Positions 5,182-25,311 of a stretch of 64,000 bases of DNA are shown here, piece by piece. The notes beneath the pieces are model-generated. The model had not been told where the DNA came from. It searched no databases and worked only from the letters and a program-made list of their open reading frames with translations. Both the position numbers and the translations under genes were made by a program. Numbering within the stretch: position 1 is the stretch's first letter; the number at the start of each line of letters is the position of its first letter. The DNA is from Candidatus Thorarchaeota archaeon (GTDB lineage Archaea; Asgardarchaeota; Thorarchaeia; Thorarchaeales; Thorarchaeaceae): assembly GCA_046758445.1 (NCBI GenBank), contig JBHIAE010000001.1, positions 1 to 64,000 on the forward strand, given 5' to 3'.

Positions 5182-5217
5182 GCAGGAGCTCATGGACAGA
5201 AACAAGGAGCAAACAAC

Positions 5218-9579: not shown

Positions 9580-10977
9580 CTATTCAACAGGCCATTTTGG
9601 CCTTATTTCTATGTCAGCACGTTCTAGAAGTGCTTGACTGTGCTCCACTGCCTTCTGCATCACTGTTTCTTCGTCGAGAGTCAACAGATTCTTGTTCATC
9701 ATCAGAACTCTTCCGTTGACTATGACCGTGTCGACTGCATGGCCACTTCCGGAGTACACTAGGTTCGACACAGGGTTGGAGTTGGGTGTCAAGCCAAGAT
9801 GTTTCATATCAACAAGGATGATGTCGGCTAGCTTCCCCGACTCAAGAGAACCAACTTCTTCAGCTATTCCCATGGCTTTGGCACCGCCTAGTGTTGCCAT
9901 CTCAATTGCCTCTTCTGCCGGAACAACAAGTGGGTCGTCCACTCTTGCCTTGTGGATGAGCGCCGCCATTCGCATCTCCCTAATCATGTCATAGGTGTTG
10001 TTGCTGGGCCCCCCATCGCAGCCTAGAGACACCGGAACTCCCATCTCTATCATCTCCGGGACACGAGCAAAGCCTGAGGCGAGCTTCATGTTGCTCGAAG
10101 GGCAGTGTGAGACGTTGGACTGTGTCACAGCCAAACGGTTCAGATCAGCATCATCGAAATGAATCCCATGTGCAAACACGATGTCCGGACCAAGCAAGCC
10201 CATGTCCTGTGTAAACTCAGTCAGGGTCATCCCGAAGTTGTCCTTCACATATCGTAGGTCATCTACAACTTCACCAAGGTGCATTGTCATTCGCGTGTCT
10301 TTCTCTCTACTCAGGCGCACTACTTCTCGGAACAGATCAGGAGTCACTGCTCCAAGCGACCTTAACCCGTACCACACCTGCAGACGCCCTTCTGCCTTGC
10401 TATGCCACTTGGCATGCATTCTGTCAGTTTCATCCAGACATGCGGCACGATTCTCGATCATCCCCGGATACATTATGTCATCGCTATCAGCATAGCCAGT
10501 CGAGTCCATCACTATCTTAGACAGGGCAGCTCGCAGCCCTGCCTTCTCAACTGCTTCCGCAATACCATTGAATCCGTAGCGGGTATGAATCATGCATTCT
10601 ACGAACGATGTGGTTCCGGTCCTTATCATCTCAGCCATGCAGAGCTCTGCGGAAACCTTGCCATCAGCCTCAGTGAAGTTGCCCTGAAGCACCCAGACGT
10701 ATCTCTTCAACCAATCAACCAGAGACACATCGTCCGCACATCCTCGTATGAGTGCCTGAGCAAGATGAACATGCGTATCAATCAGACCGGGCATCACAAT
10801 CATGTTGTTTGCATCCAGTACTATCTCCGCCTTCTCATCCGAGAGCTCACTGGTCCTTCCGATACTTGCTATCCTCCCTTCTTGCACGAAGACCGCACCA
10901 TCAGCTATGATACGACGCTTCTTGTCTAATGTGAGGACGTAGCCATTCTTGATGAGAATTGACTTTGCGGGCTGCAA
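9580..10977 (-). CDS. Metal-dependent amidohydrolase, MTA/SAH-8-oxoguanine-SsnA-type deaminase family
   Basis: PGLIDTHVH, MHLGE, HCPSSNMKL, GCDG; TTG start ~10977 after GGTGG. Confidence 0.85.
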   Translation of the reverse strand: MQPAKSILIKNGYVLTLDKKRRIIADGAVFVQEGRIASIGRTSELSDEKAEIVLDANNMIVMPGLIDTHVHLAQALIRGCADDVSLVDWLKRYVWVLQGNFTEADGKVSAELCMAEMIRTGTTSFVECMIHTRYGFNGIAEAVEKAGLRAALSKIVMDSTGYADSDDIMYPGMIENRAACLDETDRMHAKWHSKAEGRLQVWYGLRSLGAVTPDLFREVVRLSREKDTRMTMHLGEVVDDLRYVKDNFGMTLTEFTQDMGLLGPDIVFAHGIHFDDADLNRLAVTQSNVSHCPSSNMKLASGFARVPEMIEMGVPVSLGCDGGPSNNTYDMIREMRMAALIHKARVDDPLVVPAEEAIEMATLGGAKAMGIAEEVGSLESGKLADIILVDMKHLGLTPNSNPVSNLVYSGSGHAVDTVIVNGRVLMMNKNLLTLDEETVMQKAVEHSQALLERADIEIRPKWPVE

Positions 10978-11041
10978 GACACCACCCCAATGCTCTCCAG
11001 ACCTTACCTTGGTCATAATGGTTGTGGTTCTGAGAACGCGA

Positions 11042-12832
11042 CTACTGGGACTTGGACTTGTCAGCGAGCCTGAGTTCAATGGTCACTTCAAGGCCTTCCC
11101 GAGTACGACCCTTCACTCTATCAGTGAGCCTCAGCTCTGCTCCATACTTGTCAACAAGACGCCTGACAAGATGCAGGCCAACACCACCGTAACGCCTTTC
11201 CACGTCTAGGATGGCCTTCCGCTTTGAGGCACTGAGCCCAGGACCATCATCGGCAATGCTGAGGCTGAACGTTTCCTTCCTCTTCCTACCGGTAATCCAG
11301 AGGTGTCGTTTGTCGCTCTCGTTGTGCTTGACCGCATTCTCTAGCAGGTTCCACAGTAGTTGGGACAACGCACTGTCGGCCAGAACCATGACCCGACTTG
11401 GAATGCCGCTGATCTTGGTAGTCACCTCGTACTGTCTTGAGAGAAGGTCAATCTCCTTCTTTAGGACAGGTGTGAGGTTGACAGGGCCAACGCGCTCCCT
11501 CTTGGATGCTTCTGCCTTTCTCACCTTGGTGATAAGGTCTAGGCATCTATCCGCGCCATCAAGGATATACCGTTTGGCCCTCAACACTTCGTCCGAGCTG
11601 CAGTCGTCTTTGAGAAAACCACCGCCAGCAATTATGAGCTGCATCTGATTTCCGATGTCATGCATCAGAAGGTCCAACAGAAAGCGCACTTCATCCTCTG
11701 CAGACTTCAGGTCTGTCACTTCTGTGAAGATGGCAAAGCTTCCCGTGTATTTCCCATCCGGGTCATGCATGGGCGCCGCGGACACCATGGCGGGAATGAA
11801 TTCGCCGGTTTTGTGAATGAGAGTGGCCTCATAGTGTTCAACCTCACCTCGTTTCCTCGCGGCTTTCCTTTCGCGAAACTTCTCATCTGTGAGTCCATTT
11901 ATCATCTCTGTGTTAGACTTGCCGATCAGCTCACCTTTCTCATAGCCAAGCATCTCATTCAAGGCCGCATTGGTGTAGACGATTATACCGTTCTCGTCGT
12001 CCACGCCCATTCCCGCAGTCATAGTTTCCACGAGTTGACGGTAGTTTCTTTCTGAGTCCTGAAGCATCCGCTCATGCACCTTCTGCTCAGTGATATCCAT
12101 GAGCTGAGCGACAGTCTTGGTCTTGCCATCGCTGCCCGTCATTGTGCTAGCATGAATGCGTACATCCCTCGGCGTGCCGTCGCTCCGACGTATCTTGAAT
12201 TCGTACGTGGGAGGCACTTTCTCGCCTTGCTGTCTCCTCTTGTATCGTTCTGCCACCATGTCTAGGCTATCGGGATGAACGTACTGGCGAAAGTCACTTC
12301 CCAGAAGCTCACCCCTCCTCACTCCGACAATATCACAGAGCTTGTCGTTGACGTATTCAAAACGGTACTTGCCATCAATGATCATTATACCATTGAAGCT
12401 GGAGTACTCGACAATGTACTCGAGGAGATCTATCCGCTCTCGTATCTTCTCCTCCACTGCTACCCTCCGAGAGAGATCCACAATATAAGCAACAAAGCCG
12501 ACCAACTCCTGGCCTGAGAGAATTCGGTCAGCGTATGCCTGTGTTGGAACCTTCACGTTGTCTTTTCTTACGACCCGAAGACTCAGGGAGGTAGGTTTGG
12601 CACCGTTCCGAAGCGCTTGAATGCCCCTGTGCACTGTTTCTCGCTGTTCCTTAGCAACCAGTGTTTCAATATGAACTCCCCTTCTTACGTCAGTTTCATC
12701 CAATCCTAGGAGTTCAAGGGCCTTTGCGTTGGCATATGAAAGAGAGAGTTTGAGGTCAAATTCCAAGACTGGAATGAGCATAGAATCCGCGACCTCTCTG
12801 AAACGCCTCCTTTCCTTTGCCATGTCATTCAC
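11042..12832 (-). CDS. Cytoplasmic sensor histidine kinase with three PAS/PAC domains
   Basis: Three PAS repeats; H-box LMHDIGNQ, N-box NLLENAVKH, DDGPG, GGVGL. Confidence 0.9.
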   Translation of the reverse strand: MNDMAKERRRFREVADSMLIPVLEFDLKLSLSYANAKALELLGLDETDVRRGVHIETLVAKEQRETVHRGIQALRNGAKPTSLSLRVVRKDNVKVPTQAYADRILSGQELVGFVAYIVDLSRRVAVEEKIRERIDLLEYIVEYSSFNGIMIIDGKYRFEYVNDKLCDIVGVRRGELLGSDFRQYVHPDSLDMVAERYKRRQQGEKVPPTYEFKIRRSDGTPRDVRIHASTMTGSDGKTKTVAQLMDITEQKVHERMLQDSERNYRQLVETMTAGMGVDDENGIIVYTNAALNEMLGYEKGELIGKSNTEMINGLTDEKFRERKAARKRGEVEHYEATLIHKTGEFIPAMVSAAPMHDPDGKYTGSFAIFTEVTDLKSAEDEVRFLLDLLMHDIGNQMQLIIAGGGFLKDDCSSDEVLRAKRYILDGADRCLDLITKVRKAEASKRERVGPVNLTPVLKKEIDLLSRQYEVTTKISGIPSRVMVLADSALSQLLWNLLENAVKHNESDKRHLWITGRKRKETFSLSIADDGPGLSASKRKAILDVERRYGGVGLHLVRRLVDKYGAELRLTDRVKGRTREGLEVTIELRLADKSKSQ

Positions 12833-12881
12833 AATTCCCGTGCCAATTGCTTCGACGAATCACGCGATAATTAATAGGTCC

Positions 12882-12929
12882 TAATAAGTGTTCATAACTT
12901 CAACATTTGCTGTCTTTGCTCACTTATTA
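12882..12929. promoter_or_regulatory. Inverted repeat TAATAAGTG-N30-CACTTATTA in the divergent promoter region
   Basis: Perfect 9-bp inverted repeat in the AT-rich spacer between the kinase and AOR operon. Confidence 0.35.
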
Positions 12930-13129
12930 AAGAATGCCTGTCTATATCATTAGACTCCAAAGCTATCAGATTATTATACCTAGTCATTGTTGAAATCAGG
13001 CGTCGATGCATAGGAAACACTCTGCGGGCAACATGATCGTTTCCGATTCTTCGTTGAATGGCACAACTTAAAGGGCCCAACAGGAGCAGAAAAGGAGTCA
13101 CCTGAGAAAGAATCGAGAGTCTGACCCAC

Positions 13130-13621
13130 ATGAAGAGTATTCTCGCAATTGATGTCAATACATGCACGGGCTGCCGAAACTGCGAGCTTGCTTGTTCAGT
13201 CACCCATACTAGAACCTTCAATCCAGCTAGATCGCGAATACGCATATTGAAAGACGAGAACCAGAGTCTGATCATGCCCATGGTCTGCCTTCAATGCGAA
13301 GAGGCACTGTGTGAATCGGCATGTCCACCAGGGGCCATAGTTGAGAATGAGAAAGAAACCCTCTTTGTGAGAGAAGAGGACTGCATTGGATGTAGTAACT
13401 GCGTGACAGCTTGTGTCTATGGCGGTATTGAGATTGACCCAATGACCTTGAAGGCAATCAAATGCGACCTCTGTGGTGGAGATCCTGCGTGTGTGAAGGC
13501 TTGTGATTATGGAGCCATCAAGTTCGTCAAAGATGACCCACAAGGGCTTCGGCAAAGAAACCAAGGCTTGAAGCTGCTAGCTTCGATCTACGGTCAAGAA
13601 GGGCAGGAGGCGGAGCCATGA
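13130..13621 (+). CDS. 4x[4Fe-4S] electron-transfer subunit (DmsB/HycB-like) of AOR-1
   Basis: CTGCRNCELAC, CLQCEEALCESACP, CIGCSNCVTAC, KCDLC...CVKAC; ATGA overlap with AOR. Confidence 0.9.
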   Translation: MKSILAIDVNTCTGCRNCELACSVTHTRTFNPARSRIRILKDENQSLIMPMVCLQCEEALCESACPPGAIVENEKETLFVREEDCIGCSNCVTACVYGGIEIDPMTLKAIKCDLCGGDPACVKACDYGAIKFVKDDPQGLRQRNQGLKLLASIYGQEGQEAEP

Positions 13622-15552
13622 GTTTTCCATACAAGGGATATGCAGGACACTATGCCGAAATCGACCTCACGAAGGGAAAGATCTACAGACGCGAGATGGA
13701 GAAGGACTGGGCACGACTATTCCTAGGAGGGACGGGAGTCGCGGCCAAGATTCTCTGGGAAACCACTGGACCAGAGACCGACCCTCTCTCTCCTGAGAAC
13801 GTTCTCGTGGCTGGGACTGGCCCTCTCACTGGAGTGATGTTCTCACCGTCTGGCAGGTTCATGTTTGCTGCCAAGGGGCCTCTGACCGGTGTATGGGCTG
13901 AGGCACATTCTGGGGGCTTCTTTGGAGCAGAGATGAAGTATGCTGGTTTTGACTTCGTCATCTTCCGGGGGCGCTCCCCCAAACCGGTCTACCTATTCCT
14001 CCGTGACGGAAAGGCCGAGATAGTCGATGCCACTCGGCTCTGGGGTCTTGAAACTGATGTCACATCGAACATGATCAGAGAGGAACACAAGGACCCTTCA
14101 ATTGAGACCGCTGTCATAGGCCCAGCCGGAGAGAATGGTGTTCTCTATTCGAGCATCATAGTTGACTACTACCGTGCGGCTGGCCGTGCAGGGCTAGGCA
14201 CAGTCATGGGCTCCAAGAATGTAAAGGGAATCGCTGCCAGTGGCTCGCTGGGCCTTGAGGCCTATGACATGGACAGGTATCTGGAGGCGAATGAGGTTGA
14301 GATGGAGAAGCTCAACGACCCCCTCTGGACGGACTCCCTTGCTTCTCTGCGCAGGTACGGGACAACCGACCTTGTTGCTGTCATCAACGAGATTGGACGG
14401 CTTCCGACGAAGAACCATTGGACCGGATTCTACGAAGATGCTGATGACATTGGACCCGAGGTGATCGCTGACAGATACAGAATCGCGCAGGAGGCATGCC
14501 ACGGGTGCGCCGTTGGCTGCAAGTACATCTATCGTGTAAGAGAGGGGAGATTCACAGGAGGTCCTTGGGGCGGATCTGAGTACGAGTCAATAATGGCATT
14601 TGGCTCCAACTGTCTCAACAATGACATCGAGTCGGTCTTTCACATGGGGACAAGGTGTGATCTTCTTGGGATGGACACTATTTCCTGCGGGAAGTCGATA
14701 GGTTTCGCCATGGAGTTGTGGGAGAAGGGAATAATAACTTCAAAGGACACTGACGGACTAGACCTCTCTTGGGGAAATGTAGACTCGATGGTCGAGCTTG
14801 TGGAGAAGATATCGAAGAGAGAGGGATTTGGTGATACTCTGTCCAAGGGAGTGCGTAAAGCGGCGGAGATAATCGGCGGAGATGCATGGATGTATGCTGT
14901 TCATGTAAAAGGGCTTGAAGCATCAGGTCAGGACCCACGGGCACATCAGTCAGTCGGCTTGACGTATGCCACAAATGCCCGCGGGGCTGATCACCTCCGG
15001 AGTCTCTCTAGTCTTGAAGAACTAGGATATCCAGATATCGTCACCAAGAGATTCGGAAAGGAGAAGACAAAGGCTATTCTCGAGATAATGTCTCCAGAAC
15101 ACAAGGGCGAGGTCGTGAAGGACATTGAGGATCTGTACGCGCTGGTGGACTCTGCAGTGATCTGCAAGTACGGGACTATGTGGCCTCCTGTGTTCTACTT
15201 TGATACCTTCGAGAATGTAATCGCGCCTCTGACTGGAATGCAGGAATGGTCGGATCCCAGGTTTGTCAGAAGTGCCGCAGAGAGAATAAACCATCTAAGA
15301 CGCGCATACAATCACCGACTAGGTATCACACGGAAAGATGAAACACTTCCGAAACGCCTCAAGGAAGAACCTATGCCGACAGGCCCAGCCAAGGGAGGGC
15401 TTCCAGACATCGAACAAATGCTTGATGAGTACTACGACTTCCGAGGCTGCGACAGGGAAACTGGATTTCCAAAGAAGTCGAAACTTAAAGAACTCGAGCT
15501 TGACTACGTGGTTGCTGACCTAGGCAAACGAAACATGCTGGCCAAGGAGTAG
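13618..15552 (+). CDS. Tungsten aldehyde:ferredoxin oxidoreductase family protein (AOR-1)
   Basis: AAGRAGLGTVMGSKN, CHGCAVGC, EYES, DLLGMDTIS, RGADHL, ICKY. Confidence 0.92.
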   Translation: MSFPYKGYAGHYAEIDLTKGKIYRREMEKDWARLFLGGTGVAAKILWETTGPETDPLSPENVLVAGTGPLTGVMFSPSGRFMFAAKGPLTGVWAEAHSGGFFGAEMKYAGFDFVIFRGRSPKPVYLFLRDGKAEIVDATRLWGLETDVTSNMIREEHKDPSIETAVIGPAGENGVLYSSIIVDYYRAAGRAGLGTVMGSKNVKGIAASGSLGLEAYDMDRYLEANEVEMEKLNDPLWTDSLASLRRYGTTDLVAVINEIGRLPTKNHWTGFYEDADDIGPEVIADRYRIAQEACHGCAVGCKYIYRVREGRFTGGPWGGSEYESIMAFGSNCLNNDIESVFHMGTRCDLLGMDTISCGKSIGFAMELWEKGIITSKDTDGLDLSWGNVDSMVELVEKISKREGFGDTLSKGVRKAAEIIGGDAWMYAVHVKGLEASGQDPRAHQSVGLTYATNARGADHLRSLSSLEELGYPDIVTKRFGKEKTKAILEIMSPEHKGEVVKDIEDLYALVDSAVICKYGTMWPPVFYFDTFENVIAPLTGMQEWSDPRFVRSAAERINHLRRAYNHRLGITRKDETLPKRLKEEPMPTGPAKGGLPDIEQMLDEYYDFRGCDRETGFPKKSKLKELELDYVVADLGKRNMLAKE

Positions 15553-16652
15553 TGTCAATGGCTAACCTACGTGTTGACATAGCTGGGCTGAAGTTCCGGA
15601 ATCCAGTGCTTACTGCGGCAGGACCCACATCAAGGGACGGAATGACTCTGCTGAATGCAGCGGCAGGAGGGGCTGGAGGACTAGTGGCGAAAACGGTCAG
15701 CGTTAGACCCGCGGAGGTCCCAAAGCCTAACATGACAGCACTGGGCAGTGGGAGGATTGTGTCAAGGCGAGGGATTCTGAATGCCGAGCTGTGGAGTGAG
15801 CTGCCATTTGAGAGATGGTTGGAGAGTGAATACTCGATAGCACTCGGAACAGGTCTACCAGTCATTGCCAGCGTAGGCTATGCTCCGGAGGAGGTGGCGA
15901 CTCTCGCTCCTAGGATTCAGGAAAAGGGTGTTCATGCTATCGAGTTCAGTACTCATTACGTCGGTGGTCATGTAGAGATTGCCAAGACCTTGAAGGAGTC
16001 GGTTGACATCCCGGTCTTTGCAAAGATCAGCCCAAAGGTCGATGTTGTGGAAGTTACAAAATCGCTTGAGAAGGTAGTAGACGGAATCGTTGCAATCAAT
16101 ACATACGGACCCTGCTTAAGAATAGACATTGAATCAGGGAAGCCAATGCTTGGAAGCGAGGGGGGTCAAGGATGGATGAGCGGGTCAGCTTTGAAACCCA
16201 TAGCACTACGGTGCGTTGCAGACATTGCTAGGTCAACCAAGAAGCCAGTATTTGGAGTCGGCGGAGTCATGACAGGAGAGGACGCTATTGAGTTCTTCAT
16301 GGCGGGTGCCTCTGCGGTCGAGGTCTGTACTGCTGCAATCCTGGAGGGCGATACTGTATATGGCCGCATTGCCTCTCAGATAGATGAGTGGCTTGAAGCC
16401 AATGGTTACGACTCGGTTGAGGATATCAGGGGCATGGCCCTGCCTCATCTTGAGAGAGGCATCGTCTTGGAGCCGCCACCCAAGTTGGACCGTGATCGAT
16501 GTACACTCTGCGGTCTTTGTAAGAAGTCATGTGTCTACCACGCCATCACGATTGACAAGGCCGTAGGCCTCATTGCATTCGATGAGAGTGCCTGTGAGGC
16601 ATGTGGCATGTGCATCTCCGTATGTCCACACAATGCACTTAGCGTAGAGTAG
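15552..16652 (+). CDS. Dihydroorotate/dihydropyrimidine dehydrogenase (PreA-like) FMN protein with C-terminal 2x[4Fe-4S] domain
   Basis: NPVLTAAGP, VAKT, KISP, AINT, SGSALKP, GVGG, C-terminal CTLCGLC...C and CEACGMC...CP. Confidence 0.85.
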   Translation: MSMANLRVDIAGLKFRNPVLTAAGPTSRDGMTLLNAAAGGAGGLVAKTVSVRPAEVPKPNMTALGSGRIVSRRGILNAELWSELPFERWLESEYSIALGTGLPVIASVGYAPEEVATLAPRIQEKGVHAIEFSTHYVGGHVEIAKTLKESVDIPVFAKISPKVDVVEVTKSLEKVVDGIVAINTYGPCLRIDIESGKPMLGSEGGQGWMSGSALKPIALRCVADIARSTKKPVFGVGGVMTGEDAIEFFMAGASAVEVCTAAILEGDTVYGRIASQIDEWLEANGYDSVEDIRGMALPHLERGIVLEPPPKLDRDRCTLCGLCKKSCVYHAITIDKAVGLIAFDESACEACGMCISVCPHNALSVE

Positions 16653-17027
16653 TATCAGGGCATCAAGCAGCTAGTGAGAGCCTGTACAATCTTAAGACTC
16701 GTAAGACATTCACCTGCTGTCAATGCCTGGCATCATGCCATGGTCAGAAGACAGAAACTGAATTAGACGTGCCGCCACAGTCTTCCACTATGGCGTACAG
16801 GAAACACTTCAATACAAACCCTCTTGTCATCAAGTCAAGTGGCTAGGTGGTGGATATTCGAAAGCTGAGCATTTCTAAGGTTTATGGTGTTTGAATGAAC
16901 CATTTTGAATGATTATGAAGCCTTTTTTCTGATTAGAAGGTTTATCCACTTCGTTGGCCGGACCAGTTCAGAAATCTGTTAAATGGTCATTATATATACG
17001 AACACGAAGCGACTCTTGGTGATATGA

Positions 17028-17309
17028 CTGCCATCACATCAAGTACGCGAAATAGAAACAAACAGAATCATCCAGCTACCCCCAAACACCGTTCCACCTC
17101 AGATTGAGGATCTGATTCTCCTTGCCTTCGGAAAAGGTGTCATAGAGTTTGAAGCTACTCTCTATGAGAAGTTCCACCGTCTCTCTCAGGACATCATTGT
17201 TACGACGAAGGATTTCCGGTGGCACTTGGAGAACATGGAAGAGAGAGGACTCCTCGTTTCATGTGAGTTTAATGGAGAATCCTGCTGGAGTCGGCTCACA
17301 GAATCTTAA
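17028..17309 (+). CDS. Small winged-helix-like protein, probable CTG start (not in ORF track)
   Basis: Open frame MPSHQVREIETNRIIQLPPNTVPPQIEDLILLAFGKGVIEFEATLYEKFHRLSQDIIVTTKDFRWHLENMEERGLLVSCEFNGESCWSRLTES; GGTGAT RBS and TTATATATA box (16990-16998) upstream. Confidence 0.5.
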   Translation: MPSHQVREIETNRIIQLPPNTVPPQIEDLILLAFGKGVIEFEATLYEKFHRLSQDIIVTTKDFRWHLENMEERGLLVSCEFNGESCWSRLTES

Positions 17310-17762
17310 GGGATGCTTACTGAATAGGGTTTATTGCGAAATGTAATGTCACCATGGCAGGATATGGTTTCGTGTGACTCCACGGTCCCTGCCATCAGTT
17401 TCACTTGGATTGTTACACTCCCATTCCCCTGAGCCCTGACACTTTTCAACCGTCGGTTCTCCTCATCGAGCTCACATAGGGCATAACTCGCACCACCCTC
17501 AAAAGGTGCGTTCATCAGCGGGAGATTCGGTACAGGCTTGCATGAGCAATCATCATTGGTTTCTTTGAGTACCTGATCTCATTTGCCCCAGAGTGGAACC
17601 GTGTCACTTGCCAGTGTATGGGTCTGAAGAGCATCATCAAGCTCAGCGAACAGAACCGGACCGCGATGTCCACCGAACCCGTTTGCTTGCACATTCATGA
17701 CTGAGTTTCCAACTTCCAGACAGGCTTGGTGTTTGCGTCCAACTCACGATGATAGGTTTGCC

Positions 17763-18956
17763 TTAGAGATAGAGTATCTCATCGAGACCTGCGGTAAGAA
17801 GTGTAGCCTTTCGTTTGGTCACGACATAGTCGTTCTCGATCCTCACTCCGCCAAGCGCCTTGAGATACACACCCGGTTCAATCGCCATGACATTTCCTGC
17901 CTTGAAATGGTCCTCTCGTTTATACATGCTCGGGAACTCATGGACCGAGAGACCGATGCCATGACCAAGTCCATGAGTCATTCCTTCTGTAGCTGCAGGG
18001 TTCAGGCGTCGGGAGTCATAGCCGTTCTTCTTCAGCGTTTCTGCACATACCAGATTGACTTCGTCTATGTTCACTCCATCGGTGAGTGCGTCAATGGAAA
18101 CGTCTGCTGCAGCCTGAACAGACTCTAAGACATGCCGAACCTCTTCGGTCGGAGAGCCTCTGACGAATGTACGCGTCACATCTGCCACATAACGGTCCAT
18201 GGTCAGTCTTGGGAAGACGTCGAGGATGATAGGAACATATGCTTTAAGCTCGTCCCCAGGAACTCCCAGATAGTGCCAGTCGAAGGCCTTCTTGCCCACG
18301 GCGAGAATAGTATCTTCTGCAGACTGGGCGTCATTATCCAGAAGGTAGTGCTCCAGTGCAAGCTTGACATCCCTAACAGTCATCGGTTTGCCTTTATACA
18401 TGAGTGTCTTGTTTGGCCCAATCTCAGAGTCCTTCACCATCTCCATGACTCTAGACATTGCCCCTATGGTGGCATCTCCGGCCTTCTTGATCGCCTTCAC
18501 CTCTCTCTCCGACTTGGTTGCCCTTGCCTCCATCATGAGGTCATCTACAACTTTGACCTCGTAGCCGAGCTTCTGGACGATTGCTAACACCTTGGCAGTC
18601 GTATTCTCAGGGATACCTATGGTCTTGCCCGAGAAGATACTACTCAGAATTTCTTGAAACACAACATCAAGATGCTCGGGGATTCGCTTATTCTCCTTCA
18701 TGAGCTTGACAAAGACACTCGTTAGGTCATGGGTGGTCTTGATGCGGCTCTCCTTCTCAACGCGTTCAAGTGTGTTGAAGGCAGCCGCAACGATCGGCTT
18801 GTCGTCCTTGTTTTGGATGAATATTATCTCATCAGGGGATCTGAATTCAGTAAGCCAGAACACATCGGGTGTTTCAAAGGCACTCCCCACTGTAAAGAGT
18901 GCATCAATTCCATACTTGTCCATGAGCGTGTCCAGGTCGCCAAGCATTTGCAACAC
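17763..18956 (-). CDS. Xaa-Pro aminopeptidase/prolidase (M24B)
   Basis: DVFP...ADVTRT, THGLGHGIGLSVHE, IEPGVY, GGVRIEND. Confidence 0.92.
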   Translation of the reverse strand: MLQMLGDLDTLMDKYGIDALFTVGSAFETPDVFWLTEFRSPDEIIFIQNKDDKPIVAAAFNTLERVEKESRIKTTHDLTSVFVKLMKENKRIPEHLDVVFQEILSSIFSGKTIGIPENTTAKVLAIVQKLGYEVKVVDDLMMEARATKSEREVKAIKKAGDATIGAMSRVMEMVKDSEIGPNKTLMYKGKPMTVRDVKLALEHYLLDNDAQSAEDTILAVGKKAFDWHYLGVPGDELKAYVPIILDVFPRLTMDRYVADVTRTFVRGSPTEEVRHVLESVQAAADVSIDALTDGVNIDEVNLVCAETLKKNGYDSRRLNPAATEGMTHGLGHGIGLSVHEFPSMYKREDHFKAGNVMAIEPGVYLKALGGVRIENDYVVTKRKATLLTAGLDEILYL

Positions 18957-18996
18957 CGTCTTGACGCAAAGACCAGCCGATGAAAAAGGCTTCCTT

Positions 18997-19890
18997 TCAA
19001 GCCTGTGCGTATGGTTTCATTCTACGCTCAATTTGCTCTCGAGTGGGCATTTCATATGGCCCAGCCGTTTCCACATTGAACGACGAACAGGTTGCACCAA
19101 ACAGACCGGCGCGCTTCACATCGCCAGTCCGCATGTATTCAAGCAGGAATCCAATGGCATAGGTGTCTCCACACCCTGTAGAGTCGACCTGAGCATTGGC
19201 CAGAACCAGTGGAATATCCACCTGTATGTTGCGCGTATATATCGTGGAACCTTTCTGGTGACGCGTCACGAGAATCATCCTCGGACCCAAGCTCAGCAAC
19301 TCTGTAGCTGCAGAAAGCTCAGACTTGGCATCTACGGCCGTGGCCAGCTCACTCTCATTCAATTTCACCACGTCAACAAGCCTCACAACATCATCGCGTC
19401 CTTCCCATTCTTTCTGAACAATCATCTTCCCTTTGGTTGCTCTTAGATATCCTTGAGCATCCAATGAGATCAGACCTCCACTCGACCTTGCGGCTTCAAT
19501 CATGGAAGCTGGTATTTCGTCAGATGTCAGGGGGCAGAAGTGGTAGATGCTAGCTCCAAGATGCTTTGGCCGCATATCATCCAATTGCAGAGGTGGTGCT
19601 ATGGCTTCCACTCTCTGGGTCCGGACACCACTCTCATCGTATTCGTTGATGAAACGTGTGGATTTGGAACCCCTCTCCACAAGACCATCGAGATCCAGGC
19701 CTGAGTCCCGTAGAACCTGCGTGTACTCCTCCTCAAAGTCGGCACCAACACAACTCACGATGCCGGCGCCAAACGCCTCAAGGGCCATTGCAAGCATTGC
19801 ATAAGCGGTTCCCCCACCAATGGTTTCCCTTGTTGATTCCGGCGTAATGACCAAATCTCTGCTTAGATGACCAACTACGACGAGCTCCAT
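18997..19890 (-). CDS. PfkB/ribokinase-family sugar or nucleoside kinase
   Basis: GGGTAY, KLNESE, DSTGCGD. Confidence 0.9.
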   Translation of the reverse strand: MELVVVGHLSRDLVITPESTRETIGGGTAYAMLAMALEAFGAGIVSCVGADFEEEYTQVLRDSGLDLDGLVERGSKSTRFINEYDESGVRTQRVEAIAPPLQLDDMRPKHLGASIYHFCPLTSDEIPASMIEAARSSGGLISLDAQGYLRATKGKMIVQKEWEGRDDVVRLVDVVKLNESELATAVDAKSELSAATELLSLGPRMILVTRHQKGSTIYTRNIQVDIPLVLANAQVDSTGCGDTYAIGFLLEYMRTGDVKRAGLFGATCSSFNVETAGPYEMPTREQIERRMKPYAQA

Positions 19891-19997
19891 TGGGTTTTAC
19901 CTCCTCATTCGCACCAGGCGAAGTAAATGAACATCCACTCCTCTGCAATGCAGCCTATATTTCCTCTGCATCTGGGAACTTACCCCAAGACGCAGAA

Positions 19998-20645
19998 TCA
20001 AGGACACCTGTAAGCCACATACCAATAGTAGTTTCCAAAGAAGGTGTCGATTGGCGCGGCTCCTTTGGAAGAGGCTCCAATCAACGCAGTTAGCTCATTC
20101 AGGCTGTAGTAGTTCTTGAGGACTTTGTGTTCAGTACCATCACTGAACCGTCTTCGCTTGTATGTGTTATCACCACCTTCTTGTTTCAGAAGGCATCCAC
20201 CAAGTCCGGATACGTATACATTGTCAGCAAGGAACACAGTCGAATTGCGACCCAAGACACGATGAAGACCCTCTAGGAATTCTGCTACTCTTTCTCTCGG
20301 AACATGAGAGAACCAGAAGGTTGCAACAGCCGCATCAAAGACACCTGGCCGAAAGGAGAGAGAATGCGCATCCAGCAGTGAGAATTGCACGGGACAGTTG
20401 TAGTCTTTCCATCTGGCAAGGTCAATCATCTCCCATGAGATGTCAACACCAACGACTGAGTCCGTTACTGCTGAGTAGGCTTCGATTCAGTACCCTGTAC
20501 CGCAGGCAACATCCAGTACTCGCTTCCCACGCATGATATTCATCAGCGCCTCCATAAGCACTTCCTGCTCAGTTCGGAGTCCTGGAAGGTCACGTTCATA
20601 GATGGCTTCGTATTCATCAGCCACACTGCTGTAGTACTCTTTCAT
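19998..20645 (-). pseudogene. Class I SAM-dependent methyltransferase interrupted by an in-frame TGA
   Basis: Manual translation from ATG 20645: MKEYYSSVADEYEAIY...VLDVACGTGY*IEAY...GVDISWEMIDLAR; TGA at 20489-20487 (codon 53) where this motif usually has Trp. Confidence 0.75.
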
Positions 20646-20707
20646 ATCGTCGTTGGACGACTGTTCACAACGGTTAATATGCCTTGGTTACACGTTCCTA
20701 GACTGAG

Positions 20708-20998
20708 TTGACGTTTTTGGCAACGGTCACAGTGAAGTTCTTTGCAACAGTTCGGGAGGCAGTTGGCCTAAGAAGCACCGAGATGGAGGCTGAGTCAATA
20801 AGAGGCCTCCTAGAGAAACTAAAGCAGAACTATGGCAGACGCTTTATCGAAACAGTGATTGATGAGGAAACGGGAGATCTGAAGCGCTTCTACCAGTGCA
20901 TGGTGAATGGCAAGCGAATAGAGCTACTTGAAGGATATGAAACGAAACTGAAAGATGGCGACTCCGTAGCACTGTTCCCGCCGGTAGGGGGAGGCTAG
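20708..20998 (+). CDS. MoaD/ThiS/SAMP-like ubiquitin-fold sulfur carrier
   Basis: VKFFATVRE, MVNG, C-terminal LFPPVGGG. Confidence 0.92.
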   Translation: MTFLATVTVKFFATVREAVGLRSTEMEAESIRGLLEKLKQNYGRRFIETVIDEETGDLKRFYQCMVNGKRIELLEGYETKLKDGDSVALFPPVGGG

Positions 20999-21033
20999 GC
21001 TACATTTCCCATGGTCTGAGGAGTGTTTCGACC

Positions 21034-22392
21034 GTGGTCGACCTAGTAGTGAAGAATGCTCGGCTCCTTTTGGAGTCTGGACTAGTAAGAGGGGGAGTCG
21101 GAGTCGAGAACGGACGCTTCTGTGTGATTGCCACCGACGAACATCTCCCTGAGGCGGAGAGTCAGATAGACGCCGAAGGTCGGATTCTGATGCCAGGTCT
21201 CATCGATGGACATGCCCACATTCACGACCCCACTATGTTGGACCACGAAGACTTCACAACAGGATCACGTGCTGCTGCCGCAGGAGGTGTCACAACAGTG
21301 GTAGACATGCCCCTGAGCAGTCAGGTGGACACTCCGAAGGCAGTTGAAGAGAAGATTAGAGATGGGGAGGACATGTCGGTTATTGACTTCTCCTTCTACG
21401 CTGGAATGCTGAGCTCCGACAACATCACCATGATCCCATCGATGGTTGAAAAGGGCGTTGCAGGCTTCAAGGCATTCACATGTGAGCCCTATGCTGTAAG
21501 TGATGGTGTGATAGTGCAAGCACTGAGCTCTGTTTCGGAGTACGGTGGGCATGTGACAGTACACTCAGAGAATCAAGGAGTTCTCGATGAGTCCAAGGGA
21601 GAGTTCGAGGGAGAATGGGAAGCGCCTGTTAGCCACGCTCTCTCAAGGCCGAACATTGCTGAGCAACTTGCGGTGCGACAGATGGTTGGGATTGCAGAGC
21701 AGACCGGAGGTCACCTGCATGTAGCGCATGTCACGACGAGAGAGGGCGTTGTGCAGCTGGAACGAGGAAAGCAGAGGGGGATAACAGTGACTACGGAAGT
21801 TTGCCCGCACCATCTTGTCTTCGATGGAGATGATATGAACAGGCTCGGACCGAAGAGCAAGACGAACCCTCCACTGAGATTCAAGGCGGACAGATCTGCA
21901 CTCTGGTCCGCGCTACTTCGAGGCACGATAGATTTGACCGTCAGTGATCATGCTCCATGCCCAATTGAGAAAAAGGATGCAGGTTCCTCCGACATTAGAG
22001 ATGCATGGTCAGGAGTTGACGGAGTACAGATGATCATCAGAGTACTACTGTCAGAAGGGATTAACAAGGGGCGGATCTCTTATCAGCGACTCCTGAAGGT
22101 GACTTCGCAAAACCCTGCAAAGGTATTCGGCCTATATCCAAAGAAAGGCGTGATACAGGTTGGAGCCGATGCAGACTTTGTGATTGTAGACCCTACAAAG
22201 GAGGAGAATATCACCGCGGATATGATGTTCTCCAAATGTGGTTGGACGCTCTACGAAGGAATGAAGATGAAAGGCTCACCCCTGATGACCTTCGTACGTG
22301 GTGTTCAAGTGTTCGGGGACGAGAGAATGATGATCAAACCAGGACATGGCAGATTCCAAGCAATGGGCGGCATGAAACCATTTGAGGACTGA
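21034..22392 (+). CDS. Cyclic amidohydrolase (allantoinase/dihydropyrimidinase/dihydroorotase family)
   Basis: DGHAH, AAAGGVTT, GFKAF (carbamylated Lys), VHSEN, HVAHVT, KTNPPLR, SDHAP, GADAD. Confidence 0.9.
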   Translation: MVDLVVKNARLLLESGLVRGGVGVENGRFCVIATDEHLPEAESQIDAEGRILMPGLIDGHAHIHDPTMLDHEDFTTGSRAAAAGGVTTVVDMPLSSQVDTPKAVEEKIRDGEDMSVIDFSFYAGMLSSDNITMIPSMVEKGVAGFKAFTCEPYAVSDGVIVQALSSVSEYGGHVTVHSENQGVLDESKGEFEGEWEAPVSHALSRPNIAEQLAVRQMVGIAEQTGGHLHVAHVTTREGVVQLERGKQRGITVTTEVCPHHLVFDGDDMNRLGPKSKTNPPLRFKADRSALWSALLRGTIDLTVSDHAPCPIEKKDAGSSDIRDAWSGVDGVQMIIRVLLSEGINKGRISYQRLLKVTSQNPAKVFGLYPKKGVIQVGADADFVIVDPTKEENITADMMFSKCGWTLYEGMKMKGSPLMTFVRGVQVFGDERMMIKPGHGRFQAMGGMKPFED

Positions 22393-22395
22393 AAG

Positions 22396-22887
22396 TTGAC
22401 TGAATTGAACTATGTGTTCGGAGATCCGCAGGTCTGCACTGGTTGCATGATCTGTGTGAACGTGTGCAGCATGCACTACTTCAAAGTGATAGGCCCTCAA
22501 TGGTCCCGCGCTAGAGTGCTAAGGATAGAACCAGGCTTAGACTTTCCACTGTTCTGTAGGAACTGCGAGGATGCACCGTGCATGGACGCATGCCCGGAAG
22601 AGGCACTGAGCAGAACATCGAAGGGAGTTGTGATTGTCAATAATAGAAAGTGTCAGGGGCACGGTGCTTGCATCGAGGCGTGTCCCTATTACGCAATCAG
22701 GCTGAATCCGGATACTCAGAAGGCCATCAAGTGCATTCAATGCGAAAGATGTGTTGAGCGTTGTCCAGTCAATGCAATCTGGATGACAACGGATGCTGAA
22801 CTCGACGAGAAGGATTCAGATGGAAGAATTGCAGCACTGTATCAAGAACACGAAACTGAACTCTATGAAAAGGGGGACTTTCTTTGA
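22396..22887 (+). CDS. 4x[4Fe-4S] electron-transfer subunit of AOR-2
   Basis: CTGCMICVNVC, CRNCEDAPCMDACP, CQGHGACIEACP, KCIQCERCVERCP. Confidence 0.9.
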   Translation: MTELNYVFGDPQVCTGCMICVNVCSMHYFKVIGPQWSRARVLRIEPGLDFPLFCRNCEDAPCMDACPEEALSRTSKGVVIVNNRKCQGHGACIEACPYYAIRLNPDTQKAIKCIQCERCVERCPVNAIWMTTDAELDEKDSDGRIAALYQEHETELYEKGDFL

Positions 22888-24764
22888 TTAAGGGAATCGG
22901 TGGAGAAATCATCTGGGTAGACCTGAGCAAAGGCAAGATAGAGAAACGCCCCGTTGAGGAGGAGATGGTCAGGCAATACCTCCTCGGTGCCGGATATCTC
23001 TCAAGAGTCATCTACGAAAAGGTTCCTGTGGGCACCGATCCTCTATCCCCTCAGAATTTGTTAGGCATCGCTACTGGACTGCTCACAGGATCGATGTTCC
23101 CTCAGGCATCGCGACATGTTGTGGCCGCCCTTTCTCCATTAACGGACGTCTGGGGAGAGTCGCACGCGGCTGGATTCTGGGGACCAGAGCTCAAACTAGC
23201 CGGATACGACGCAATCATGTTCATAGGCGCTTCATCCCAACCAGTCTACCTCAACATCGTGAACGACAAGGTCGAGCTTCTCGATGCATCGGAGATTTGG
23301 GGGACCTCGGTCTTTCACACTGACGACTGGATTCGTGAGAAACATGGCAAGCTATGTCGAGTGCTCTCTATCGGACAGGCAGGAGAGAATCTTGTTCGTT
23401 TCGCAGCAGTGATGAATGACCGGGACAGAGCATCGGCAAGGTCGGGTCTGGGTGCAGTCATGGGCTCAAAGAAGCTGAAGGCAATCTCTGTTCGGGGGAC
23501 TGGAAAGCTTGAGGTGGCTGACCCAAAGAACTACCTGAAGCAGATGGACATATTCTATGAACGCATGTTGGCTAACCCGTTCACCAAAGAGAGAGCCAAG
23601 TACGGTACCACGAATCTTGTCGAGCTCATGGACCACATAGGTAGACTTCCCAGCTACAACATGCGACAGGGCGTCTTTGAGGGTTACGAGAAGATTAGCG
23701 GAGAAACGATTACACGAGAGTATCTAGTGAAACCAAGATCGGACTGGAGTTGCCTCCAGAGATGTGGCAGGTACACGCGAGTTAGAGATGGGCCATACAA
23801 GTACATAGGCGGGTCTCCAGAGTTCGAGTCCCAGTCATCCTTGGGCTCCCGATGCGGGAACGATAACATAGAGTCGGTCCTCTACTCCCATCATCTCTCG
23901 AACATGTATGGCATGGACACAATATCATTAGGAGGGACCATATCTTGGGCGATGGAGGCTTGGGATGAGGGCCTCCTCACAACCGAGGACACCGGGGGAA
24001 TCGACCTTACATGGGGAAATCATGAGACTGTTGTCAAGCTAACAGAGATGATAGCCTTTCGAGAAGGATTTGGTGACATCCTTGCGGAGGGCAGTGCCAG
24101 AGCTGCCGAGAAGATAGGACGGGGCACAGACAGGTTCGTGATGACCGTCAAGAAGCAGGAGATGGCCGGACAGGAACCAAGGGCACAGAAGTCAATGGGA
24201 CTGGCCGCCGTCACTGCCGCGAGAGGGGCAGACCATCTCTACTCATTCCCTGTCTTAGACGAGGCAGGTTTCGACGATGAGATCAAGCATAGGTTTGGCG
24301 AGCAATATCTCCCCGAGATGGCCGACCGCTTGAACCCGAAGTACAAAGGCATAATGGTGAAGGAATGCGAGGACTTCATGGTGGTCGTGGAGAGCGTCGG
24401 CCTGTGTAAGTATGGAACACAGATACCGCCAGAGTTCTACTACGATGACGTGGCCATGGCTCTAAAGATTCACAACGGCCTAGAATTCACACGGGACGAG
24501 CTTCAGACGATAGGTGAGCGAATTGTGAATGTCAATCGCCTCTTCAACATTGCTCGTGGAGTGACTCGACAGGATGACCAGCTGCCAGATCGCCTCACCA
24601 AGGAGAAAGCTCCAAAGGGACCTCCCAAAGGACAGGTCGTTGAGCTCGATCAGATGCTTGATGAATACTACCAGGAGAGAGGATGGGACCTGAAGACCGG
24701 GCTGCCTCTGAAGCAAACACTTGAGAGACTTGGCCTAGGAAAGGATGCTGAGGGAATTACCTAG
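22884..24764 (+). CDS. Tungsten aldehyde:ferredoxin oxidoreductase family protein (AOR-2)
   Basis: ARSGLGAVMGSKK, DWSCLQRC, PEFES, GMDTIS, RGADHL, LCKY. Confidence 0.9.
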   Translation: MIKGIGGEIIWVDLSKGKIEKRPVEEEMVRQYLLGAGYLSRVIYEKVPVGTDPLSPQNLLGIATGLLTGSMFPQASRHVVAALSPLTDVWGESHAAGFWGPELKLAGYDAIMFIGASSQPVYLNIVNDKVELLDASEIWGTSVFHTDDWIREKHGKLCRVLSIGQAGENLVRFAAVMNDRDRASARSGLGAVMGSKKLKAISVRGTGKLEVADPKNYLKQMDIFYERMLANPFTKERAKYGTTNLVELMDHIGRLPSYNMRQGVFEGYEKISGETITREYLVKPRSDWSCLQRCGRYTRVRDGPYKYIGGSPEFESQSSLGSRCGNDNIESVLYSHHLSNMYGMDTISLGGTISWAMEAWDEGLLTTEDTGGIDLTWGNHETVVKLTEMIAFREGFGDILAEGSARAAEKIGRGTDRFVMTVKKQEMAGQEPRAQKSMGLAAVTAARGADHLYSFPVLDEAGFDDEIKHRFGEQYLPEMADRLNPKYKGIMVKECEDFMVVVESVGLCKYGTQIPPEFYYDDVAMALKIHNGLEFTRDELQTIGERIVNVNRLFNIARGVTRQDDQLPDRLTKEKAPKGPPKGQVVELDQMLDEYYQERGWDLKTGLPLKQTLERLGLGKDAEGIT

Positions 24765-25311
24765 AGAGAACAAGGATGTGATTTGTACGACTGAAGATAG
24801 GACGAACAGGTTCCAAGTCAAGATGGACATCACTGTGGAGGACCACATTCGAGCCAAGAGCGCAAAACTTGTTTCCCTAGTAAGGGAGCTGGAGGTGGAA
24901 TCTGGCAAAGACGAGGCACATGAGATTGTATCGAACTGGGCGGAGAAGAACGCCATCCAAGATGTCAAATCAGTAGTTGACTCGCTGGAGAAACCCTTAG
25001 AGTCCTTCGAAGACGTCAAGGTCCTACTCCGTCATTGGGTTGAAGCTCTCAACAAAGACAATATTGAAACTGTGGAGATCACTGAAGAGACCTCAACCAA
25101 GTCGGTCTGTATCGTCACTGAGTGTGTCTACGGAAAAGTGTACAACGACCTTGACGCTCCAGACATCGGGTATCTCTTGCATTGTAAACACGACTTTGCG
25201 GCAGCGCCTGCAATTCACCCTAACGTGCGCGTAAGAAGAACGAAGACCGTGATGGAGAACCACGATTGCTGTGACTTTGAGTACTACTGGGTTGCCGAGG
25301 CGAATGAGTAG
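24745..25311 (+). CDS. L-2-amino-thiazoline-4-carboxylate (ATC) hydrolase family / V4R-like protein
   Basis: VTECVY, GYLLHCKHDF, RTKTVME...CCDF; true start probably ~24822. Confidence 0.7.
   Translation: MLRELPRENKDVICTTEDRTNRFQVKMDITVEDHIRAKSAKLVSLVRELEVESGKDEAHEIVSNWAEKNAIQDVKSVVDSLEKPLESFEDVKVLLRHWVEALNKDNIETVEITEETSTKSVCIVTECVYGKVYNDLDAPDIGYLLHCKHDFAAAPAIHPNVRVRRTKTVMENHDCCDFEYYWVAEANE

Follow-up and report, generated by a model that had tools for sequence, protein, structure and literature searches.

The reductive uric acid, or 2,8-dioxopurine, pathway was described in 2025 in bacteria (bioRxiv 10.1101/2025.05.19.654654, 10.1101/2025.04.24.650524). The entry enzyme of the pathway is a molybdenum-containing, often selenium-dependent, enzyme of the xanthine dehydrogenase (XDH) type, and every described version has it. 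Here, a gene cluster is analyzed that occupies 9.6–25.3 kb of a 64,000-nucleotide stretch (the window; positions 1–64,000 of contig JBHIAE010000001.1) from a Candidatus Thorarchaeota archaeon (assembly GCA_046758445.1; 3.25 Mb, 113 contigs, 92.7% complete). The cluster combines two AOR-family pterin enzymes (AOR1 and AOR2) and their polyferredoxins (Fd1 and Fd2) with a PreA-like reductase and ring hydrolases. It is best read as the Thorarchaeota form of an Asgard-wide module whose logic, and some of whose genes, are homologous to those of the bacterial pathway. The module probably serves the catabolism of a purine-type ring. By analogy with the bacterial clusters, there is close to, but somewhat less than, an even chance that the locus is an archaeal variant of the reductive uric acid/2,8-dioxopurine pathway in which AOR modules take the position of XDH, and it is tentatively proposed that the heterocycle is a substrate of the AORs themselves, which would stand in for XDH.

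The E. coli cluster consists of xdhD-ygfM, ygfK, ssnA, hyuA, ygeW, yqeA, ygeY and ygeX, and variants with UacX and UacY occur in C. difficile and C. sporogenes. Urate is dehydroxylated by XdhD/DOPDH, and the ring is dearomatized by YgfK or, in C. difficile, by UacX. SsnA is responsible for ring opening, and the hydantoin is opened by HyuA. YgeW with YqeA (or UacY), along with YgeY, serves to remove the ureido groups, and pyruvate is released by YgeX. SsnA is the marker gene of the pathway, and the PF01180 protein UacX is probably a ferredoxin-dependent alternative to YgfK. The reductase step is unfavorable alone, and UacX probably needs a low-potential electron donor. Neither of the two preprints that report these findings mentions archaea or tungsten (bioRxiv 10.1101/2025.05.19.654654, 10.1101/2025.04.24.650524). 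A literature search found no paper that links AORs to SsnA, UacX or dioxopurine in archaea or that describes the present arrangement.

The Thorarchaeota system resembles the bacterial uric acid cluster in its putative PF01180-type FMN/Fe-S ring reductase without an NAD(P)H module, as UacX is described, in its SsnA-like, hydantoinase-type, OTC-type, carbamate kinase and guanine-deaminase-like genes, in a YgfS-like polyferredoxin, in genes for pterin-cofactor maturation within the cluster or close to it and in the position of the putative reductase beside a pterin enzyme. It differs in that no XDH-family enzyme was found in the genome and two AORs with polyferredoxins (three in some relatives) are present instead. 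Orthologues of YgeX and YgeY were likewise not found, an M24 peptidase is present and the host is archaeal. The window genes also resemble those of the three-subunit tungsten enzyme AorABC of Aromatoleum aromaticum (8C0Z), the P. furiosus AOR (1AOR) and WOR5 with its polyferredoxin (6X1O) in the AOR catalytic subunit with its Glu/His pair and [4Fe-4S] cluster, in a four-cluster polyferredoxin gene just upstream, in a flavin subunit gene downstream and in a nearby MoaD-like gene. In contrast to AorABC, whose AorC subunit binds FAD and NAD, the third subunit here is an FMN protein of the DHOD fold with two [4Fe-4S] clusters. Moreover, the neighbors in the locus are ring hydrolases rather than genes of aromatic-acid or aldehyde metabolism.

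The original prediction, made from the DNA letters alone, proposed a tungsten-AOR-based purine/pyrimidine catabolic system in two operons. Open reading frame (ORF) listing and Pfam/NCBIfam scans of the window proteins located each of the genes that it had placed at 9.6–25.3 kb, including the MoaD/SAMP-type carrier and the allantoinase/dihydropyrimidinase-type hydrolase before AOR2, the PAS histidine kinase and the deaminase divergent from AOR1 and the PfkB kinase between the operons (Table 1). Three features absent from the prediction were added, namely the M24 gene, a 1.1-kb spacer and the ATC-hydrolase-like gene. The pyrimidine part of the prediction is unlikely. In the first operon (Fd1, AOR1 and PreA-like), every start codon overlaps the preceding stop codon, and the AOR1/PreA-like overlap is also found in two relatives (L033 and L035; loci are numbered L, contigs of this genome C, and genome families f).

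AOR1 retains both AOR domains, PF02730 and PF01314, the equivalents of Glu313 and His448 and the four cysteine ligands of the [4Fe-4S] cluster. AOR2 also retains both domains and the Glu313/His448 equivalents, but its first Fe-S ligand is aspartate rather than cysteine (DxxCxxxC). The aspartate is conserved in the f1 and f12 orthologues, and the f15 orthologue has cysteine. Fd1, which is 35% identical to E. coli YgfS, has 16 invariant cysteines and thus the capacity for four [4Fe-4S] clusters. Fd2 has 15 cysteines that form three complete cluster motifs and one incomplete motif. The predicted pairing of a four-cluster ferredoxin with an AOR in both operons stands as a pairing, but the cluster count is complete only for Fd1. 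The aspartate ligand of AOR2 and the 15 cysteines of Fd2 together point to an unusually ligated cluster in the Fd2–AOR2 module. A complex prediction for Fd1 and the PreA-like protein gave a score of 0.00 without controls and weighs neither way. The metal of AOR1 and AOR2 may be tungsten, judging from family membership. The most likely role of the MoaD/SAMP-type protein is in making the pterin cofactor of the AORs. Its presence agrees with the original prediction, which had counted it as part of the system, but archaeal MoaD genes are generically associated with AOR genes for cofactor synthesis (PMC2948915).

The two cluster-linked AORs form clades apart from the canonical AOR of the genome. 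The genome contains 12 AOR-family genes, and bit scores to 1AOR are 614 and 534 for the paralogues on contigs C3 and C2, which are, by sequence, the canonical AORs of the genome, and 405 and 384 for AOR1 and AOR2. Across 1AOR and 8C0Z, AOR1 and AOR2 score 366–405 bits and the C3 paralogue 614 and 529 bits. In a maximum-likelihood tree, the AOR1 clade (support 100/99) and the AOR2 clade (100/100) each span f1, f12 and f15 and form a group with a third clade, AOR3 (85/88), and the C3 and C2 paralogues fall outside this group; the tree was built without characterized AOR sequences, and placement relative to those rests on the bit scores to PDB chains. Thus, AOR1 and AOR2, which could have proved to be members of a well-characterized aldehyde-oxidizing clade, lie outside the clade of the canonical AOR of the genome. 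The AOR1 clade was seen only beside PreA-like genes. In f15 and f18 genomes, the AOR3 clade is located inside the purine-type cluster.

The PreA-like protein has the TIM-barrel FMN fold of PreA/DPD and class 1 DHOD and, as in PreA, a C-terminal domain with two [4Fe-4S] clusters. Alignment with the true PreA and PyrD proteins of the genome, which has three DHO_dh-fold genes, shows that the FMN-barrel residues are kept (equivalents of Lys47, Asn77, Lys158 and Asn183). However, the N-x-S-C-P-H loop that carries the catalytic cysteine of PreA and DHOD is deleted (‘IEFSTHY’ versus ‘IELNVSCPH’), so that the predicted PreA/DHOD-like reductase is present in its fold and Fe-S domain but lacks the catalytic residue of those enzymes. 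An invariant S-T-H-Y sequence replaces the active-site loop throughout the PreA-like family, and a family-specific invariant cysteine (Cys188, ‘GPC’) is found elsewhere in the protein. In a whole-library search, the E(F/L)STHY motif was observed in ∼25 representative clusters, and homologues with an SCP(H/N) loop occurred only below ∼38% identity. The operon contains no NAD(P)H-input partner of the PreT or PyrK type. This architecture (PF01180 FMN/Fe-S without an FAD domain) fits the described UacX type, and relatives of the protein adjoin SsnA-like genes and XDH. A role as a purine-ring (dearomatizing) reductase is proposed. Other STHY relatives are located between two amidohydrolases or, in one instance, beside a purine/cytosine permease.

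The pyrimidine enzymes of the genome are encoded outside the window. PyrD (328 bits; cut-off 269) lies with PyrK on C2, and a dihydroorotase-type gene, the probable pyrC, lies on C3; the window genes were accordingly rejected as biosynthetic pyrD and pyrC. A canonical reductive pyrimidine pathway at the locus was also rejected, since true PreA (428 bits; cut-off 335), dihydropyrimidinase (494 bits; cut-off 393), a nitrilase-type carbamoyl-amidase and an aminotransferase form a set on C4. Because these copies are located elsewhere, the window PreA-like protein and cyclic amidohydrolase (the genome has three cyclic amidohydrolases of the dihydroorotase/dihydropyrimidinase type) are third paralogues that act on another substrate. 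The C4 set (L030, C4:86000-105000) includes a class III aminotransferase, has no PreT gene and is interrupted by a TnpB-family gene. Beside it lies a gene for a 655-residue fusion of a CpaM-type methyltransferase and an HgcAB-like corrinoid/ferredoxin protein.

Candidate counterparts of the hydrolases of the bacterial pathway lie in the window and on C23. The cyclic amidohydrolase scores 354 bits with the allantoinase model (cut-off 357.85) and 328 bits with the D-hydantoinase model (cut-off 393), is 31.5% identical to E. coli HyuA and has a complete HxH/K/H/H/D metal site; on this sequence evidence, it is the putative counterpart of HyuA. The window deaminase finds its best models among 5'-deoxyadenosine, MTA/SAH, 8-oxoguanine and guanine deaminases, all below their cut-offs, and is 26% identical to E. 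coli GuaD, with homology beginning at approximately residue 40 of the longest ORF. The deaminase is not the SsnA counterpart. It reaches only 226 bits with the SsnA model (cut-off 444), and the SsnA-like gene of the genome lies outside the window at C23:5195-6529 and encodes a protein 32% identical to E. coli SsnA. In Asgard clusters outside Thorarchaeota, the second amidohydrolase is the orthologue of this protein (51% identical in L035), and its best NCBIfam match is SsnA, at 373 bits. Around the SsnA-like gene (L045, C23:1-20000), an Amidohydro_2 gene follows and genes for two proteins without a family match precede; an adenine deaminase gene (18238-19983) is located on the same contig at a distance of 12 kb.

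The carbamoyltransferase functions were tentatively assigned to genes elsewhere in the genome. Two intact OTC paralogues, 28–30% identical to YgeW, are located on C36, and a carbamate kinase gene on C21 encodes a protein 45% identical to YqeA; in f12, OTC genes lie within the cluster. The protein at 1.3–2.3 kb of the window had been taken as YgeW-like. This identity was rejected because the protein scores only 38 bits against a cut-off of 453 and all three carbamoyl-phosphate motifs are lost (STRTR to AAQES, HPxQ to SPQS and HCLP to SEPP). This full-length OTC-fold protein may have lost its enzyme function, as a pseudo-enzyme, or serve in ligand binding; in L005, its gene adjoins the ABC transporter genes of the cluster. 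The M24 protein might cleave a ureido or peptide bond.

Conservation of gene order was analyzed in 26 Thorarchaeota-type loci from a scan of species-representative genomes, in a wider sample obtained by a protein search and from 201 genomes of the phylum, in which distant homologues are 52–57% identical, and in 80 additional loci from a scan of metagenome contigs. In each of the 19 genome loci whose upstream flank is long enough, AOR1, with Fd1, is located upstream of the PreA-like gene. The Thorarchaeota order (deaminase–kinase–Fd1–AOR1–PreA-like–M24–PfkB–MoaD–hydrolase–Fd2–AOR2) is the same in all Thorarchaeota loci that have sufficient flank and persists down to ∼56–80% amino acid identity, and the position of the PAS kinase is conserved across these loci. 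Some relatives have a gap of ∼2 kb between AOR1 and the PreA-like gene. A conserved PreT-like gene within this gap was rejected, as the inserts differ (a CLC channel, or zf-PARP with DUF234). Among the 49 metagenome loci with at least 2.5 kb of upstream flank, 37 contain an AOR, which is located within 2.5 kb of the PreA-like gene in 35 loci and beyond an insert in two.

Outside Thorarchaeota, a shuffled core of Fd–AOR–PreA-like with SsnA-like, deaminase-like, hydantoinase-like, OTC, MoaD and second Fd–AOR genes recurs in f12, f15, f18 and f6. The order in f12 is OTC, OTC, deaminase, MoaD, second amidohydrolase, Fd1, AOR1, PreA-like and MoaD, followed by AOR2–Fd2. In f18, the PreA-like gene is followed by the second amidohydrolase, deaminase, MoaD, Fd and AOR genes, and in f6 the order is AOR, PreA-like and amidohydrolase. 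The f15 cluster contains three AORs. The core also recurs in further metagenome loci, some of which (L115–L117 and L119) carry three AORs, a hydantoinase-like gene and carbamate kinase, and the dihydropyrimidinase-like–Fd2–AOR2 order is also observed in L115 and L116. Orthologues of the window deaminase lie inside the cluster in f1, f12 and f18. The M24 and PfkB genes are cluster members only in the Thorarchaeota form, and the ATC-hydrolase-like gene is found in only some relatives. The arrangement is far beyond chance, and its persistence through wide reshuffling argues for a functional unit.

XDH was searched for in the genome, in sampled f1 and f12 genomes and at the metagenome loci. The 92.7% complete genome has no match to the XDH family PF02738, and tblastn searches of the genome with E. 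coli XdhA and XdhD found nothing. PF02738 was found in none of the 43 f1 and none of the 19 f12 genomes sampled (62 in total), of which 41 and 14, respectively, have the STHY-type PreA-like gene. Conversely, three Asgard families without the PreA-like gene have PF02738 in 20 of 21, 6 of 7 and 9 of 10 genomes. An AOR and an XDH never occur together in the 80 metagenome loci, in agreement with the predicted anti-correlation. Genome G004 of f6 has both XDH and PreA-like homologues, but its XDH regions (C17 and C18) contain no PreA-like, SsnA-like or AOR gene and are uninformative.

The proposed likeness to the enterobacterial and clostridial purine clusters, with AORs in the place of XDH, is supported by loci in which orthologues of the PreA-like, SsnA-like and hydantoinase-like genes accompany a molybdenum XDH (L050, L064 and L141/L142). 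In 10 of the 49 flanked metagenome loci (the L050 type), an SsnA-like gene adjoins the PreA-like gene and no AOR is present. The archaeal locus L050 contains a PreA-like orthologue (51–54% identical) after an SsnA-like gene and an orthologue (44% identical) of the window cyclic amidohydrolase; downstream lie XdhC, MocA-like, MoCF_biosynth, molybdate transporter, ThiS and three-subunit xanthine dehydrogenase genes. In L064, from a flagellated bacterium, a PreA-like relative (38–40% identical) is followed by genes for the 2Fe-2S subunit and the FAD subunit of XDH and by an SsnA-like gene; OTC and XDH molybdenum subunit genes lie nearby. The clusters of these two types thus share hydantoinase-like (44%), SsnA-like (51–54%) and STHY PreA-like (38–54%) orthologues with the present system but carry molybdenum XDH subunits and XdhC/MocA instead of an AOR. 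The AOR/XDH pattern is as expected for non-orthologous displacement. Full-length YgfK homologues, 39–40% identical to the E. coli protein over ∼1060 residues, are found in L135, L141 and L142, with XDH in L141 and L142. In these loci, YgfK with its own SsnA-like gene and a trio of STHY PreA-like, SsnA-like and hydantoinase-like genes form two reductase–hydrolase sets per locus.

Under the preferred reading, in which the AOR modules take the XDH position, purines would be deaminated by the MtaD/GuaD-like amidohydrolase. The polyferredoxin–AOR modules would hydroxylate or dehydroxylate ring carbons, as XdhA and XdhD/DOPDH do in bacteria, with ferredoxin as the partner in electron exchange. In this scheme, the reductase would work with AOR1 as an XdhD-like enzyme, whereas AOR2 would be a second XDH-like enzyme. 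The co-translated PreA/UacX-type protein would dearomatize the ring with electrons delivered via Fd1. The SsnA-like hydrolase encoded on C23 would then open the six-membered ring, and the hydantoinase/allantoinase-type hydrolase of the cluster would open the five-membered ring. The ureido groups could be removed by the C36 carbamoyltransferases and the C21 carbamate kinase, giving ATP, and perhaps also by the M24 hydrolase. MoaD would contribute to the synthesis of the pterin cofactor, and regulation could fall to the PAS kinase. This scheme, in which AORs and polyferredoxins replace molybdenum XDH of Asgard archaea in hydroxylating and dehydroxylating purine carbons, as in the interconversion of xanthine, urate and 2,8-dioxopurine, and AOR1, Fd1 and the PreA-like protein form one complex for two successive reductions, is put forward with slightly less confidence than the participation of the AORs in ring chemistry as such. 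Conversion of a heterocycle C–H bond to a lactam is formally the same oxidation as the aldehyde-to-acid reaction, and both are catalyzed by members of the XDH family. A purine reaction of an AOR-family enzyme is therefore plausible, though without precedent. The presence of several AOR clades per cluster may parallel the two molybdenum hydroxylases, XDH and DOPDH/XdhD, of the bacterial system.

Several observations weigh against this reading. To our knowledge, no AOR-family enzyme acts on a purine. Because AOR1 and AOR2 keep the standard aldehyde-oxidizing Glu/His pair, the active-site motifs bear no mark of a new substrate. An AOR3-clade paralogue with a polyferredoxin (L060, C11:36000-55900) lies in this genome between a class IV aminotransferase gene and an arginase-family gene, near glutamate dehydrogenase, a context of amino acid genes that fits ordinary aldehyde oxidation. 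The WtpA tungstate transporter was searched for in the genome and not found, and sequence does not distinguish tungsten from molybdenum as the metal; E. coli YdhV, an AOR-family member, reportedly binds molybdenum. The likeness of the PreA-like protein to UacX is one of described architecture. Moreover, the substrate of the STHY PreA-like proteins may not be 2,8-dioxopurine, since YgfK coexists with them in XDH-type archaeal loci. Every pathway protein scores below its NCBIfam equivalog cut-off, and the SsnA-like, intact OTC and carbamate kinase genes of this genome are on contigs other than that of the cluster. For the 2,3-diaminopropionate ammonia-lyase YgeX, the best TIGR01747 match is 56 bits (cut-off 274), and tblastn with E. 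coli YgeX returned nothing at E 1e-8 with a query coverage of 40% or more. The AOR/XDH complementarity amounts to only a few independent events because the compared lineages are kin.

The same purine-type pathway could instead use the AORs as ordinary aldehyde oxidizers that supply low-potential electrons for dearomatization by the PreA-like protein, and this possibility, although unlikely, is the most serious rival. The acid/aldehyde couple at approximately −580 mV would drive the uphill step, and an entry substrate such as xanthine from the deaminase would need no XDH-type step. Retention of the canonical AOR catalytic residues, translational coupling of Fd1, AOR1 and the PreA-like gene without an NAD(P)H subunit, the amino acid/aldehyde context of the sister clade AOR3 and the unfavorable reductase step with its probable requirement for a low-potential donor, as reported for UacX in the pathway preprints, are all consistent with such a role. 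However, no aldehyde is made in the known pathway, and a stoichiometric aldehyde co-substrate for purine reduction is without precedent. Electrons could also be supplied by the ten further AOR-family genes and the ferredoxin pool, and two or three AOR clades per operon are hard to square with one reductase. Aldehyde oxidation would also leave the mutual exclusion of XDH and AOR between lineages unexplained.

It is improbable that the module degrades another cyclic ureide or N-heterocycle, such as 5-substituted hydantoins, thiazolines, N-carbamoyl amino acids or another nucleobase-like compound, with the released amino acids converted to aldehydes that the AORs oxidize. Such substrates would suit the cyclic amidohydrolase, which is nearest to L-hydantoinase and allantoinase, the ATC-hydrolase-like gene downstream of AOR2 and the M24 hydrolase. 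They would also suit a PreA-like protein that is missing the catalytic loop of DPD and DHOD and coexists with YgfK in some XDH-type loci. However, the most constant neighbors are SsnA-like and guanine-deaminase-like amidohydrolases, and the neighbors in other lineages are XDH with XdhC/MocA; all of these are markers of the purine pathway. One relative adjoins a purine/cytosine permease, and the M24, PfkB and ATC-hydrolase genes are outside the core beyond Thorarchaeota. A very improbable third explanation, that general AOR operons of peptide and aldehyde fermentation were inherited by chance beside hydrolases in one lineage, would suit the many AORs per Asgard genome (12 here), which published reconstructions treat as generic (PMC11291895), and the kinship of all Thorarchaeota loci, but the linkage outlasts reshuffling in at least five Asgard families, start and stop codons overlap, the cluster has AOR clades of its own and XDH is mutually exclusive with AOR at the locus level.

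Table 1. Features of the cluster and its surroundings in the window
Feature	Position	Strand	Evidence or remark
Degenerate OTC/ATC-fold protein, peripheral to cluster	1283..2347	-	38 bits to YgeW model; carbamoyl-phosphate motifs replaced
255-residue protein of no known family and ABC ATPase	4414..5982	+	Profile scan
ABC-2 type permease	8349..9563	+	Profile scan
Deaminase-type amidohydrolase, MtaD/DadD/guanine-deaminase group	9580..11079	-	Below every NCBIfam cut-off
PAS-domain histidine kinase, candidate sensor	11042..12832	-	Divergent from Fd1 operon
Polyferredoxin Fd1	13130..13621	+	16 Cys
AOR1, AOR-family pterin enzyme	13618..15552	+	AFOR_N and AFOR_C, E 1e-118
PreA/UacX-type FMN barrel (DHO_dh) with C-terminal 2x[4Fe-4S] domain	15552..16652	+	Profile scan, alignment
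ORF-free spacer, 1.1 kb	16653..17762		Unique within genome
M24 metallopeptidase, prolidase-like	17763..18956	-	Five metal ligands complete
PfkB-family kinase	18997..19890	-	Best model ribose-1-phosphate kinase, 60 bits (cut-off 330)
MoaD/SAMP-type sulfur carrier	20708..20998	+	Profile scan
Cyclic amidohydrolase, L-hydantoinase/allantoinase type	21034..22392	+	Complete binuclear metal site
Polyferredoxin Fd2	22396..22887	+	15 Cys
AOR2, AOR-family pterin enzyme, second cluster-linked clade	22884..24764	+	Both AOR domains
ATC_hydrolase (PF14196)-like protein	24745..25311	+	Start overlaps AOR2 stop

Further features of the window flank or interrupt the cluster. Together with the ABC-2 permease, the 255-residue protein and the ABC ATPase make up a transporter set; in relatives, the genes of this set directly border the deaminase gene, and the adjacency of permease and deaminase is conserved. 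In the window, an ORF for a 285-residue protein of no known family and a B12-binding radical SAM gene (6100-8302) lie between the ABC ATPase and the permease. The two transporter genes are directly adjacent in L005, L013, L020 and L066, and L093 has the same insert as the window. The spacer between the PreA-like and M24 genes contains no Rfam match and no ORF longer than 93 residues and has no copy elsewhere in the genome. In two relatives that are 94–95% identical (L001 and L002), the PreA-like and M24 genes are only ∼25 bp apart, which suggests that the spacer arose recently by insertion or is the remnant of a gene that has decayed.

If the locus is a variant of the reductive uric acid/2,8-dioxopurine pathway, the pathway would extend to Asgard archaea and to nucleic acid recycling in sediments, and the poorly understood multi-copy AORs of Asgard archaea would gain a defined role in physiology. 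Action of the AORs on the ring, if confirmed, would represent a new reaction class for a family so far known for aldehyde/acid chemistry and benzoyl-CoA reduction and would provide a case in which an enzyme of a tungsten family has taken the place of a molybdenum enzyme within one pathway.

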